Shown in pieces: positions 13,072-17,330 of a DNA stretch of 64,000 nt (position 1 is its first letter; each line of letters opens with the position of its first letter). Made by a program: the position numbers and the translations under genes. The stretch lies in IMG/VR virus record IMGVR_UViG_2563366960_000002. The stretch is one strand, 5' to 3'. The notes beneath the pieces are model-generated. The model searched no databases, was not told the origin of the DNA, and worked only from the letters and a program-made list of their open reading frames with translations. Source of the stretch: a virus (Duplodnaviria; Heunggongvirae; Uroviricota; Caudoviricetes).

Positions 13072-14199
13072 CTATCCTTCGCTACGAAGATGCTTATCTA
13101 AGAATTTTGTAAACTGGTTTGTTGAGCCAAAATAGTTGGGGTAGGCTTTTTTTAGTGACTTAATGTTATCTGTAGCAACGAGAACAGATATCAACACATT
13201 AGGATCGGAATCGTCTTTATTTAAGGCCTCAAGAGCTTCATCTGCTTCTTTTGTTTTAAATGCGCGAACAGATACAAGGAACATTTTTTTGTTTTTTGTA
13301 TGGGGCTTGTTTTCTGCATTTCTCATTGTGACTAAGTAATGCCCCTTATGATTTTTTGGCAATTTCTTAATCAGATCCGCATCAGAAGTTAGATTTAAGG
13401 CGAGGGTGTATGTGCTTAGTTTCCTCCGTACAGATAAAGCCTGCTCCAGCGCTTTAAGCTCGCCTTCATACTGAGCTACAACTAGTTCATCAAGAATGCA
13501 GGCTTTTTCGTCGTGCGCCACAAGACATCCTGCTAGATAGAAAAATCTTCTCCATTCCGGATGCCCTTCACTTGAAGTTTTCAGCTTGATACCTTCAAGG
13601 GTATCAATTATTTCAAGGCTAGTAGCCCAAGCATGTTGCAATTGAGTTCTTAACTGTATTTCAATTTTTGTTTTTCGCCATGGGTATTGCTCCTCCTTCT
13701 GATCAAAGCAACTGTATGCAAGGTGGATCCCACTATAGCCGCTATTTTTGGGAGTAAGATAATCATACTCTTTAACAATTCTATGAACAGATTTGCTTTT
13801 TAAAAGACGTTCCCTTAGCTGTTTCAACTGATCTAAGTTTCTGACTATGGCTCTACACCCGCCAATGTCCTGCATCCGTGTTAATTTAATTGCATTGCTA
13901 GTTCTGCCGCCATCAAGACTAGGACGCTCAAGTTTATCTATTATGGTAGAAAGTCGCTTAAGTCTTCTTGCAACGAGAATCTTTTTGTCTTTAGCAACCT
14001 TATCTGCCGCTCTAGCCAAATGGTTTTTCATGAGCATTAATGGATAAAGATGTAGCTCACGAAAATTCTGGATCATTTCAATCGCTTTTTGCCTTTCTCC
14101 ATCGCTGCATCCATGCCTTATCAATTGAGCTGCCCTGTCTATTTGAGATTTAGAATAATTTAGCTTGCATTTTTGGCTTTGATATACTTCATTCCCCAT
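13072..14199 (-). CDS. RelA/SpoT-homologue (RSH) nucleotidyltransferase-domain protein, candidate fused toxSAS toxin-antitoxin (CapRel-like) defence protein
   Basis: 375 aa; synthetase-type motifs GRTSNAIKLTRMQDIGGCRAIV (res 98-119), GYSGIH (154-159, Tyr155), EIQLRTQLQHAWA (180-192); about 170-aa C-terminal extension; about 35% GC versus about 50% flanks; occupies the P1 res/mod position. Confidence 0.8.
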   Translation of the reverse strand: MGNEVYQSQKCKLNYSKSQIDRAAQLIRHGCSDGERQKAIEMIQNFRELHLYPLMLMKNHLARAADKVAKDKKILVARRLKRLSTIIDKLERPSLDGGRTSNAIKLTRMQDIGGCRAIVRNLDQLKQLRERLLKSKSVHRIVKEYDYLTPKNSGYSGIHLAYSCFDQKEEQYPWRKTKIEIQLRTQLQHAWATSLEIIDTLEGIKLKTSSEGHPEWRRFFYLAGCLVAHDEKACILDELVVAQYEGELKALEQALSVRRKLSTYTLALNLTSDADLIKKLPKNHKGHYLVTMRNAENKPHTKNKKMFLVSVRAFKTKEADEALEALNKDDSDPNVLISVLVATDNIKSLKKAYPNYFGSTNQFTKFLDKHLRSEG

Positions 14200-14300: not shown

Positions 14301-14942
14301 TTAAAGATATCTCCCCTTACCAGTCAATATACCTTGTGGTACATGCTTTTGTGCGAGTGTTTGGGTGCCGCGAATTATGTTAATCAGAGGGCTTAGTAAC
14401 GATGGTTCCTGGCTTGCCTCAACTTCTCCAGCCATTGCCCTGATGTAGTCGGCGCTGGCAACGTTGTTGTATTCCGCCGCAAAGCAACATAGTAACGTCA
14501 GAACATGCTCTGTCGTTATTTCGCTCCAGTTGATGTTGAAAAATTCATCGCCTTTTTTATCGTGTTCGGAATCGAAGATGCTTTGGTGGAGGATGTATTT
14601 GCCGGATTCCTTGCGCGGTAACTTGATCGCTTTCTGGCGTTCCAGCTCCTTGTAAATCTGCATTGCTTCAATCAGTACCGGCCTGCCGTTCATGAAGGGA
14701 TCGCGCAACCTTACACGCTGGCCAACTCGACCAGTAATAAAGCTGTTTTCCTCTTCCACCAGCACGATAAAACCTTTTTCCTCTTTCTCACGCAATTCGC
14801 GCAGCAACTGGAGTTCCATATCGCGGCGGCGTTCAGGGTAGCTGGTCCGCTCAGCCATTATCAGCTCGTTGTTGATCCATGCAGCAGTCATTGACGCCGG
14901 TTTGCCGACGCTCATCGAAACAACGCATATTTTCTTATCCAT
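14301..14942 (-). CDS. mat: Mat-like protein
   Basis: 213 aa from ATG 14942 (AGGGG Shine-Dalgarno; track start 14969 is GTG); located between ref and the hotspot as in P1. Confidence 0.55.
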   Translation of the reverse strand: MDKKICVVSMSVGKPASMTAAWINNELIMAERTSYPERRRDMELQLLRELREKEEKGFIVLVEEENSFITGRVGQRVRLRDPFMNGRPVLIEAMQIYKELERQKAIKLPRKESGKYILHQSIFDSEHDKKGDEFFNINWSEITTEHVLTLLCCFAAEYNNVASADYIRAMAGEVEASQEPSLLSPLINIIRGTQTLAQKHVPQGILTGKGRYL

Positions 14943-15130
14943 AGCGCCCCTACAAAAAAGAAAAGCCACCAGCGGCGGCTTAGCAATACAACAAAAGGTA
15001 GCGCCCGGTACTCAGACTGTGCCGTCCATGGAATATTTGAAAAGGGATCCATCCGTACCGGGCATGTGATGATTCTGACTGAAGTCACTTGTCAGTTGTC
15101 AATTATTTCAGATTAAAAATAATATATTTA

Positions 15131-15691
15131 TTAGTGCATAATGTTTGCCATCTCATAGGCGTCAGCCAGCAACTCCATCTCTGACTTGTTCAGCAAGGTG
15201 AATTCTTTCTTGCCTCCAACCACACCATCGGCATGAACAGGGACCAGCCAGGGATATTTTTCTCTTACTTCAGCCGGTGCTGCATGCTGGTGGTGCCATC
15301 TACAAAGGGGCAATTGCTTTTTGTGACAACCCGGCGCGGTACGACCGGAGATATGGTGCAAAGATACCTCTTCAGATATTACTCCATGCATGTAGCAGGC
15401 AATGCAGGGGAGAGCGCCAAGAGCACTGGCGATGCTCCGTTCCTCCGCTGTCGGTGTTCGCCCCTTCAAGCCACGAGATTTTATCTTTACCGCACTTTTC
15501 CGCGTTTTGCTGGCTGGTGGGCGCTCTTTCTGTTTAGCGATACGGCGGTCGATAGAATCCCGCATTTTCTGATATTGCGATTCTCGCCAGGCGGGGTCAG
15601 CCAACTTTTCCCGTTGCCGAGCGATCGCTCGTTCTCTGGCTGCCTTCTGCCACTCGCGGCGCTGTTCAAGTTTTTGTTCGATTGTTTTCAT
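15131..15691 (-). CDS. ref: Ref, RecA-dependent HNH endonuclease
   Basis: 186 aa from ATG 15691; basic N-terminal region and HNH-like core (CHKKQLPLCRWHHQHAAPAEVREKYPWL); matches P1 Ref length and sequence. Confidence 0.85.
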   Translation of the reverse strand: MKTIEQKLEQRREWQKAARERAIARQREKLADPAWRESQYQKMRDSIDRRIAKQKERPPASKTRKSAVKIKSRGLKGRTPTAEERSIASALGALPCIACYMHGVISEEVSLHHISGRTAPGCHKKQLPLCRWHHQHAAPAEVREKYPWLVPVHADGVVGGKKEFTLLNKSEMELLADAYEMANIMH

Positions 15692-15696
15692 ATGGC

Positions 15697-15722
15697 AAAA
15701 AAAAGGCGGCCTAATGGCCGCC
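15697..15722 (-). terminator. Intrinsic-terminator-like hairpin plus U8 in the ref leader
   Basis: Minus strand: GGCGGCC-atta-GGCCGCC followed by TTTTTTTT, ending about 6 nt before the ref ATG and downstream of the Op2 promoter. Confidence 0.5.
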
Positions 15723-15779
15723 AATGATGTCAAGGAGTGAAGTAATGGCAACGTCTTCGTAGTTGACAAAAACTGCGGC

Positions 15780-15806
15780 TCAATTATAGCAATCAATTAG
15801 AGCAAT
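15780..15806 (-). promoter_or_regulatory. Overlapping C1 operators with embedded -10 (ref promoter, Op2-like)
   Basis: Reverse complement ATTGCTCTAATTGATTGCTATAATTG: one full operator overlapping a second operator-like copy that contains TATAAT. Confidence 0.7.
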
Positions 15807-15936
15807 GGTAGATATTTTGTTTATCGCGAATCACATTTTTTCACTTCAGTACCTGTGTGCTATACTCCTTCTTGATTGATTGGATGCGGAATACAAACCC
15901 GCTCTTTTGTGCAGCCTGGCTCCTTGCCAGGCTTTT

Positions 15937-16248
15937 TTATTTCATCATGGAAGCTGTTAACGCTTTGGATCTTGCTGAACTGATTGAAAGGGCATTGTTT
16001 ACCTTACCCAGGAGTTCGCCAAATTCCGCCATCACTCTAGTAAGCCCGCGCCGCGCTTCCTCCTCCGTTGCATTCATCACAAAATGTTCAGCGCTCCGCA
16101 TGCTTTTAACGGGGAACGCAACAGATATCGAGTCGATATCAGGCATCCTATCGCTCAATTTTACGGTGACAATGACAGATGGTGACTGAATTTGAGAGCT
16201 TACAGACAGCACCACATATTTTCCGTCTATTTTGAAATCCTTCCGCAT
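15937..16248 (-). CDS. C1-controlled small protein between cre and ref (cra-like)
   Basis: 103 aa; ATG 16248 with GGTGA Shine-Dalgarno; operator immediately upstream; no domain recognised. Confidence 0.5.
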   Translation of the reverse strand: MRKDFKIDGKYVVLSVSSQIQSPSVIVTVKLSDRMPDIDSISVAFPVKSMRSAEHFVMNATEEEARRGLTRVMAEFGELLGKVNNALSISSARSKALTASMMK

Positions 16249-16264
16249 GCGTCACCATAAATAT

Positions 16265-16281
16265 CAAATAATTAGAGCAAT
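16265..16281 (-). promoter_or_regulatory. C1 operator
   Basis: Reverse complement ATTGCTCTAATTATTTG; lies between the cre stop and the downstream small ORF. Confidence 0.7.
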
Positions 16282-16298
16282 CAAGCGCAAATGAACGG

Positions 16299-17330
16299 CT
16301 AATCGCCATCTTCCAGCAGGCGTACCATTGCCCCCGTTTCACTATCCAGGTTACGGATATAGTTCATGACAATATTCACGTTGGTCCAGCCACCAGCTTG
16401 CATGATCTCCGGTATTGAAACTCCGGCGCGGGCCATATCTCGCGCGGCTCCGACACGGGCACTGTGTCCAGACCAGGCCAGGTATCTCTGACCAGAGTCA
16501 TCCTTAGCGCCGTAAATCAATCGATGAGTTGCTTCAAAAATCCCTTCCAGGGCGCGAGTTGATAGCTGGCTGGTGGCAGATGGCGCGGCAACACCATTTT
16601 TTCTGACACGGCAAAACAAGTAGTTATTCGGATCATCAGCCACACCAGAGACAGAAATCCATCGCTCGACCAGTTTAGTTACCCCCAGGCTAAGTGCCTT
16701 CTCTACACCTGCGGTGCTAACCAGCGTTTTCGTTCTGCCAATATGGATTAACATTCTCCCACCGTCAGTACGTGAGATATCTTTAACCCTGATCCTGGCA
16801 ATTTCGGCTATACGTAACAGGGTGTTATAAGCAATCCCCAGAAATGCCAGATTACGTATATCCTGGCAGCGATCGCTATTTTCCATGAGTGAACGAACCT
16901 GGTCGAAATCAGTGCGTTCGAACGCCAGTGCCTGTTTTGCACGTTCACCGGCATCAACGTTTTCTTTTCGGATCCGTCGCATGACCAGTGAAACAGCATT
17001 ACTGTCACTTGGTCGTGGCAGCCCGGACCGACGATGAAGCATGTTTAGCTGGCCCAAATGTTGCTGGATAGTTTTTACTGCCAGACCGCGCGCCTGAAGA
17101 TATAGAAGATAATCGCGAACATCTTCAGGTTCTGCGGGAAACCATTTCCGGTTATTCAACTTGCACCATGCCGCCCACGACCGGCAAACGGACAGAAGCA
17201 TTTTCCAGGTATGCTCAGAAAACGCCTGGCGATCCCTGAACATGTCCATCAGATTCTTGCGAACCTCATCACTCGTTGCATCGACCGGTAATGCAGGCAA
17301 ATTTTGGTGTACGGTCAGTAAATTGGACAT
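16299..17330 (-). CDS. cre: Cre site-specific tyrosine recombinase
   Basis: 343 aa; sequence recognised as P1 Cre (MSNLLTVHQNLPALPVDATSDEVRKNLMDMFRDRQAFSEHTWK...); loxP lies 420 bp upstream. Confidence 0.98.
   Translation of the reverse strand: MSNLLTVHQNLPALPVDATSDEVRKNLMDMFRDRQAFSEHTWKMLLSVCRSWAAWCKLNNRKWFPAEPEDVRDYLLYLQARGLAVKTIQQHLGQLNMLHRRSGLPRPSDSNAVSLVMRRIRKENVDAGERAKQALAFERTDFDQVRSLMENSDRCQDIRNLAFLGIAYNTLLRIAEIARIRVKDISRTDGGRMLIHIGRTKTLVSTAGVEKALSLGVTKLVERWISVSGVADDPNNYLFCRVRKNGVAAPSATSQLSTRALEGIFEATHRLIYGAKDDSGQRYLAWSGHSARVGAARDMARAGVSIPEIMQAGGWTNVNIVMNYIRNLDSETGAMVRLLEDGD

Follow-up and report, generated by a model that had tools for sequence, protein, structure and literature searches.

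The ref gene of a P1-like phage is preceded by a G+C-rich hairpin and a run of eight U residues, lying just 5′ of its start codon, that together probably form a functional intrinsic (Rho-independent) terminator and serve as an attenuator in the ref leader. Termination itself, its efficiency, the transcript starts, and its purpose as a safeguard are what we infer for this element; every sequence hallmark of an intrinsic terminator is present, and the hairpin is real and almost certainly functional. The DNA analyzed, a window of 64,000 nucleotides, is that of a P1-like phage, and its positions 15100-16300 share 98.8% identity with phages JL22 and RCS47 and 93.5% with phage P1. Three genes of the locus are read from the minus strand: cre (17330-16299), c8 (16248-15937), and ref (15691-15131), the last comprising 186 codons and a stop and identified by its open reading frame, its translation (MKTIEQKLEQ...), and its homology as encoding the RecA-dependent HNH nuclease Ref. 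The ref ATG occupies positions 15691-15689, and the 186-aa product is 94.6% identical to P1 Ref and 98.9% identical to RCS47 Ref. The N-terminus of the protein aligns at the same start position with Ref of Cronobacter phage JK004 and of Salmonella.

Read on the minus strand, positions 15722-15689 run GGCGGCC ATTA GGCCGCC TTTTTTTT GCCAT ATG. The sequence resolves into a terminator hairpin (15722-15705) with its 5′ arm at 15722-15716, its loop at 15715-15712, and its 3′ arm at 15711-15705, followed by a T8 (U8) tract that abuts the stem (15704-15697, corresponding to P1 2064-2071) and by a spacer (15696-15692) that separates the tract from the start codon. A sequence-only reading of this DNA had described a 7-bp GC-rich stem and U8 ending about 6 nt before the ATG; the elements are there as described and the gap is 5 nt. 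All seven pairs of the stem are G-C, the loop is 4 nt long, and the hairpin folds at -16.2 kcal/mol alone and with a pair probability of 0.99-1.0 when folded within the full ref leader. These features match those of intrinsic terminators, which carry a G+C-rich stem of ~5-14 bp, a short loop, and a U-tract of ~7-9 nt directly 3′ of the stem on the transcribed strand, here the ref-sense strand. On the other strand, AATGATG comes after the stem and there is no T-run. A generic terminator scan also detects the ref hairpin as a terminator-like site. With strict terminators defined as perfect stems of ≥6 bp that contain ≥5 G-C pairs and are followed by ≥7 T in eight positions, the two strands of the window together hold three, compared with a mean of 0.03 in 30 dinucleotide shuffles. 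The third of these sites is at 35000-35022 on the plus strand (ACATGCCGC-GTCTT-GCGGCATGT then TTTTATTT).

The hairpin lies between a C1-controlled promoter and the ref start codon, as the sequence-only reading had proposed, and this is the position of a leader attenuator, with the promoter assigned through homology to the annotated P1 genome. The P1 record (AF234172) places the promoter P2ref at P1 positions 1957-1985 and the C1 operator Oref at 1962-1978. Aligned to the window, P2ref occupies 15811-15783 on the minus strand (-35 at 15811-15806, -10 TATAAT at 15788-15783) and is overlapped by Oref (ATTGCTCTAATTGATTG) at 15806-15790. One base differs from P1 in the aligned promoter region, within the P2ref -35, and between the operator and the ATG, hairpin, T8, and spacer included, the window matches P1 base for base. 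From the position of the -10 element, a leader RNA spanning 15778-15692 is predicted, which would measure ~87 nt up to the ATG, or ~82 nt should transcription stop at the last U of the tract, and the hairpin lies ~56 nt downstream of this predicted start. The leader is predicted to fold into a first hairpin (15773-15753, leader hairpin 1) and the terminator, with z = -2.8 relative to shuffles. AF234172 also lists a "predicted" sigma-70 promoter, P1ref, with its -35 at P1 2017-2022 and its -10 at 2039-2044 (window 15729-15724), and an independent scan finds the same element at 15751-15724 (TTGCCA, a 16-nt spacer, and a TG-extended CATCAT). The P1 record carries no terminator annotation at the ref leader. 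Neither the terminator scan nor the strict search found a terminator belonging to cre or c8 in the ref direction. Between P2ref and a divergent promoter on the plus strand lies the sequence CGATAAA (15826-15820, minus strand), which Ronayne et al. (2016; PMC4713147) describe as an H-NS site in the ref 5′ regulatory region.

The sequence immediately before ref also offers little to an initiating ribosome. Pairing of the anti-Shine-Dalgarno sequence with the 20 nt that precede the ATG (GGCCGCCTTTTTTTTGCCAT) amounts to only -1.5 kcal/mol, compared with a median of -4.3 kcal/mol for 47 long open reading frames of the window, in agreement with the earlier statement that no Shine-Dalgarno sequence precedes ref. 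The U-rich ref leader and the AAA second codon of ref may permit some Shine-Dalgarno-independent initiation in E. coli. Upstream of the ATG, the ref frame has no stop for 35 codons; it crosses the hairpin and reaches back to a TTG at 15796 (window 15796-15692, minus strand). This extension lacks a Shine-Dalgarno sequence and any ATG or GTG, and is therefore probably fortuitous.

Conservation within P1-type loci distinguishes the stem and U-tract from their surroundings. Among named P1-like phages (P1, P7, SJ46, and 813R1) the c8-ref spacer is 99% identical, and covariation is therefore uninformative. The IMG/VR collection provided 80 P1-type loci that are more variable than the named phages, and nucleotide diversity (pi) was calculated from the 72 P1-type loci that could be aligned over their full length. 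Diversity is 0.002 in the stem and 0.0035 in the T-run, against 0.11 in the loop, 0.042 in the rest of the leader, and 0.067 at third-codon positions of ref. The stem can pair in every P1-type locus examined, and the only two variants at its edges are C to T changes that produce G.U pairs. The loop occurs as ATTA, ATCA, or TAAA and the spacer as GCCAT, GACCAT, or ACCTT, the latter two spacers also being devoid of a Shine-Dalgarno sequence. The T-run is 7-10 nt long in all readable loci (one locus, L019, has Ns there). Evolution has thus preserved the pairing, constraining the stem and leaving the loop to vary, a pattern that, judged from these alignments, is the one expected for a functional RNA hairpin with a functional U-tract and is indicative of purifying selection on the hairpin in P1-type loci.

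Individual P1-type loci depart from the common arrangement. Phage vB_EcoM-813R1 (L004, ~885-905) has lost 2 nt where the 3′ arm meets the T-run (GGCCGC-TTTTTTT), and the annotation of its ref, no more than "similar to RecA-dependent nuclease," is suggestive of a pseudogene. In two IMG/VR loci (L050 and L051), unrelated DNA replaces the sequence upstream of Oref, so that a promoter and terminator unit on the plus strand is gone and the operator is changed at its 5′ edge; the ref leader and hairpin are intact.

More distant homologues, retrieved by translated search with Ref, show which part of the locus the hairpin accompanies. A scan of genome contigs with Ref returned three close relatives only. 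In Cronobacter phage JK004, whose Ref is 66% identical, a C1-type operator (ATTGCTCTAATAATTAT) is fused to TATAAT and followed by a leader of ~75 nt, the hairpin GACGGTC-TTCG-GACCGTC, T8, and then 13 nt without a Shine-Dalgarno sequence before the ATG. The same hairpin is found in Salmonella plasmid prophages and in three IMG/VR loci (L097, L177, and L178), and ref of the Salmonella type has GGAG or GGGA before a GTG start. A further IMG/VR locus (L098) has a very different leader, in which a one-sided change in the 3′ arm (GGCCGTC) yields a U.G pair. JK004, the Salmonella plasmids, L097, and L098 all keep the C1-type operator with TATAAT, the ~75-nt leader, a 7-bp hairpin, and T8, and at the sequence level this retention of the whole layout across lineages is striking. 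Analysis of 12 representative leaders with RNAalifold returned the hairpin as the sole consensus structure, with 100% of its cells paired. Across these leaders two stem pairs carry substitutions in both arms (G-C to A-U and C-G to U-A) and one pair has become a wobble; the double changes probably stem from a single divergence event, so that the covariation is modest.

We rejected the idea that the hairpin is a general feature of ref genes, because it is absent from D6-type, Citrobacter, and Alteromonas loci, where ref has ordinary ribosome-binding sites. The D6-type phages and plasmids encode a homologous Ref (50-56% identical) and, unlike the window, have neither a leader hairpin nor a T-run before ref but a Shine-Dalgarno sequence, AAGAGG. 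At the Pantoea ref locus no hairpin is found upstream of a CTG, and the annotated start there is doubtful. Presence of the hairpin therefore tracks the C1-operated leader, not the ref gene itself.

A second element is kept across leader types just 5′ of the hairpin, a CU-rich motif (CACUCCUUGAC) at 15739-15729 on the minus strand. Its equivalent in the other lineages reads CUCC(U/C)CUGAC, and in the form CUCC(U/C)UGAC the motif resembles an anti-Shine-Dalgarno sequence and is conserved in all leader types, the L015, L016, and L009 leaders included. For the Salmonella plasmids, folding predicts that it bridges the U-run to pair with the GGAG or GGGA Shine-Dalgarno sequence of ref, a modeled pairing that could mask this site in read-through mRNA of the Salmonella type. 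Leaders of the P1 type retain the motif despite the absence of a Shine-Dalgarno sequence.

Together, these features can be accommodated in a simple mechanism. Upon relief of C1 repression, polymerases that initiate at P2ref would make a leader of ~80 nt, and the majority of transcripts would stop in the U-run, 5-12 nt 5′ of the ref ATG. Polymerases arriving from the upstream genes cre and c8 would be halted at the same terminator, so that ref mRNA would consist of the read-through fraction only. This mRNA would be translated poorly, being devoid of a Shine-Dalgarno sequence and carrying a stable hairpin 14 nt 5′ of the ATG, and attenuation together with the weak translation start could hold the toxic Ref nuclease at a low dose. 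The mechanism fits what is described of ref and its product. Ref, a nuclease dependent on RecA, is toxic to E. coli and enhances the lethality of ciprofloxacin, and it has found use as a programmable nuclease (PMC4713147, PMC3973344); ref is repressed by C1 and induced in the lytic cycle (PMC4713147). An attenuator agrees with this toxicity, repression, and induction, and since ref is clearly expressed after induction (PMC4713147), a substantial fraction of transcripts must read through or bypass the hairpin.

A ref attenuator appears to have been known since 1988, to judge from the title of Windle, Laufer and Hays (J Bacteriol 1988;170:4881; PMC211533), which names "attenuator-antiterminator control" of P1 ref. 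The gene and locus are the same, the identity of the published attenuator with the hairpin described here rests on that title, and the idea of the sequence-only reading is essentially the published one. We take the "attenuator" to be the ref hairpin because no other terminator-like element lies between the annotated promoters and the start of ref. The P1ref, P2ref, and Oref nomenclature of the P1 record traces to the Windle 1988 work and to GenBank M23246, which is recorded as matching P1 1808-2063, a match whose end coincides with the final base of the hairpin. Later work treats C1 and H-NS as regulators of ref and, in the passages retrieved, does not discuss the attenuator (PMC4713147), and the P1vir RNA-seq paper (PMC8201110) makes no mention of ref, of terminators, or of mapped starts for the region. 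What is new here is evidence from comparison for the terminator, a candidate antiterminator with weak support, and the bypass that P1ref would offer; the attenuator is not a discovery.

The sequence-only reading held that ref would need read-through or antitermination; it did not take into account the predicted P1ref, whose transcripts would bypass the hairpin, so that read-through is not strictly needed. The predicted P1ref start (~15720-15714) falls within the 5′ arm or loop of the terminator, so that transcripts of this type would retain at most a stub of 4-5 bp (-7.6 to -8.7 kcal/mol for the earliest starts), and none from 15717. The hairpin could then be an insulator that stops cre/c8 and P2ref transcription, with ref expressed chiefly from P1ref and independent of read-through or antitermination. 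An insulating role would suit a c8 gene without its own terminator in the ref direction, P1ref is found both in AF234172 and in the promoter scan, and C1 is said to occlude "one of the ref promoters" (PMC4713147). However, P1ref matches the consensus at 9/12 positions only, and such matches are no commoner in the region than in shuffles. The JK004, Salmonella, and L098 leaders lack the P1ref -10 element and still have the operator with TATAAT, the hairpin, and T8, and an insulator alone would serve equally well upstream of P2ref. Regulation of ref by C1 (PMC4713147) implies that operator-controlled P2ref transcripts do reach ref. We therefore regard insulation with bypass as unlikely to be the main role of the hairpin: P1ref may contribute in P1-type phages and does not explain the conserved layout of operator, leader, and terminator.

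Two further explanations give the hairpin a role, or none, apart from attenuation. The unit from promoter to terminator could produce a C1-repressed, trans-acting small RNA of ~80 nt, with ref expressed through leaky termination. A promoter with a near-consensus -10 followed ~80 nt on by a strong terminator, a leader that folds better than shuffles (the z-score given above), and a mirror-image promoter/terminator unit adjoining on the other strand are all compatible with this idea. We nevertheless consider it very improbable: outside the hairpin and short motifs the leader diverges between lineages, the best Rfam match (suhB/mmgR) scores 22.9 bits against a gathering score of 41 (E = 0.087), and no target was identified for the putative RNA. 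The stem is also a perfect DNA palindrome, which would give the same symmetry as an RNA stem, and the symmetric double changes seen between lineages would be allowed in a dimer-binding site as well. A chance palindrome or a protein-binding site acting at the DNA level, with no RNA role, is nonetheless extremely unlikely, given that the adjacent T8 is equally conserved and strand-specific, that loop bases vary freely and stem bases do not, that the C to T changes in one arm keep RNA pairing as G.U and break DNA symmetry, and that shuffles almost never yield such a hairpin site.

Whether read-through is itself regulated is a separate question about the attenuator. In one model, the terminator would compete with an antiterminator helix formed by the 5′ arm and an upstream segment, and a phage or host factor or the kinetics of transcription would decide between them and thereby time ref expression. 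Folds of the P1-type leader at a stage of transcription when the 3′ arm has yet to be made predict that GUUGCCA (15752-15746, minus strand) pairs with the 5′ arm as UGGCGGC, and in the JK004, Salmonella, and L098 leaders ACUGUCA is predicted to pair with the corresponding UGACGGU. In these folds the alternative helix captures the 5′ arm in most P1-type leaders, and in both main types the real leaders beat ~97.5% of shuffles (p 0.024-0.049). AACTGTC is an invariant island in the otherwise divergent non-P1 leaders, the 5′ end of the P1-type transcript is predicted to compete for the GUUGCCA segment, and "antiterminator" stands in the 1988 title. Against the model, the alternative fold is ~9 kcal/mol weaker than the terminator fold (-14.9 versus -23.7), and four P1-type variants with an intact ref (L054, L065, L093, and L096) lose the helix, two of them (L054 and L065) being at chance level in the shuffle test (p 0.47 and 0.65, respectively). 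The RNAalifold consensus of 12 leaders contains the terminator and neither the antiterminator nor leader hairpin 1, no Rfam family matched, and the GUUGCCA of P1-type leaders includes the bases of the predicted P1ref -35, which could account for its conservation. The cis antiterminator helix is thus a possible, weakly supported candidate, and regulated read-through of this kind seems rather unlikely to us.

Candidates for a sensor or a processive antitermination system were sought in the same region. A leader peptide was rejected as a sensor, as the leader contains no ATG or GTG and the only upstream starts in the ref frame are TTG codons without a Shine-Dalgarno sequence; nor does the leader match a riboswitch or any other Rfam family. 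A protein-binding element in the leader is conceivable. An E-value scan of 14500-17000 against Rfam gave three sub-threshold hits at chance level only (suhB, MicX, and GcvB), and no nut, qut, or put site and no boxA/boxB element was recognizable upstream of the terminator in the Rfam scan. The neighboring plus-strand RNA was also considered as a trans-acting antiterminator on the ref leader and rejected, because 70% of shuffles pair as well.

Classical leader attenuators of the trp, pyrBI, and bgl types rely on alternative RNA structures. The ref attenuator resembles them in having its terminator in the 5′ leader, after the promoter and ahead of the start codon. For ref, too, one can draw a helix further upstream that would exclude the terminator and for which a 5′ segment would compete, in a 1:2 / 2:3 / 3:4-like arrangement. 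Unlike them, it has no leader peptide and no recognizable sensor, and its helix is weak and not present in all variants. In the lambda PR′-tR′ system, the short 6S RNA is the default product, and expression of the downstream genes requires read-through brought about by Q antitermination. The ref leader likewise has a strong terminator close behind its promoter; in contrast to lambda, no qut- or nut-like element and no Q- or N-like factor was identified, and the promoter is controlled by a repressor. Late transcription in P1 uses an activator, Lpa, and is not known to use antitermination.

The sequence around ref holds two further features that merit description. On the plus strand, a sigma-70-like promoter at 15838-15866 (TTTTCA, a 17-nt spacer, and a TG-extended TATACT) points away from P2ref, and ~45 nt downstream of it a strict terminator at 15913-15941 (AGCCTGGC-TCCTT-GCCAGGCT and a T-run) ends at the c8 stop codon. 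The predicted RNA of ~66 nt (15873-15940) would form two hairpins (z = -2.9) and is nearly invariant in ~70 P1-type loci. It has no Rfam match, no annotation in the P1 record, and no special complementarity to the ref leader, and on these predictions the unit (window 15838-15941) looks like a candidate for an unannotated small RNA. Further along, where P1 carries res/mod, a 375-aa open reading frame (13072-14199, minus strand) adjoins mat. It has a RelA_SpoT domain (Pfam PF04607, E = 6e-13) and matches the PADLOC candidate defense family PDC-S33 (E = 8e-86), and on these similarities it probably encodes a fused toxin system of the alarmone-synthetase type, presumably resembling CapRel of the P1-like phage SJ46.

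A bolder reading of the locus is that the ref leader is a regulated RNA switch that times Ref to a lytic stage or to the SOS response, and/or that the terminated ~80-nt leader and the ~66-nt RNA are unannotated small RNAs of P1, each with its own role. We think this improbable; if true, GUUGCCA in the P1 type and AACUGUC in the JK004 and Salmonella types would capture the 5′ arm once a phage or host factor, or altered transcription kinetics, stabilizes the pairing, and the switch would be common to C1-controlled P1-like elements. Returning to the attenuator itself, a terminator that acted in the proposed way would mean that expression of native ref is set by three layers, namely the repressor, the attenuator, and a weak translation start. 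The attenuator would then bear on the interpretation of ref phenotypes, reporter fusions, and deletion constructs, and on the engineering of ref into therapeutic phages.
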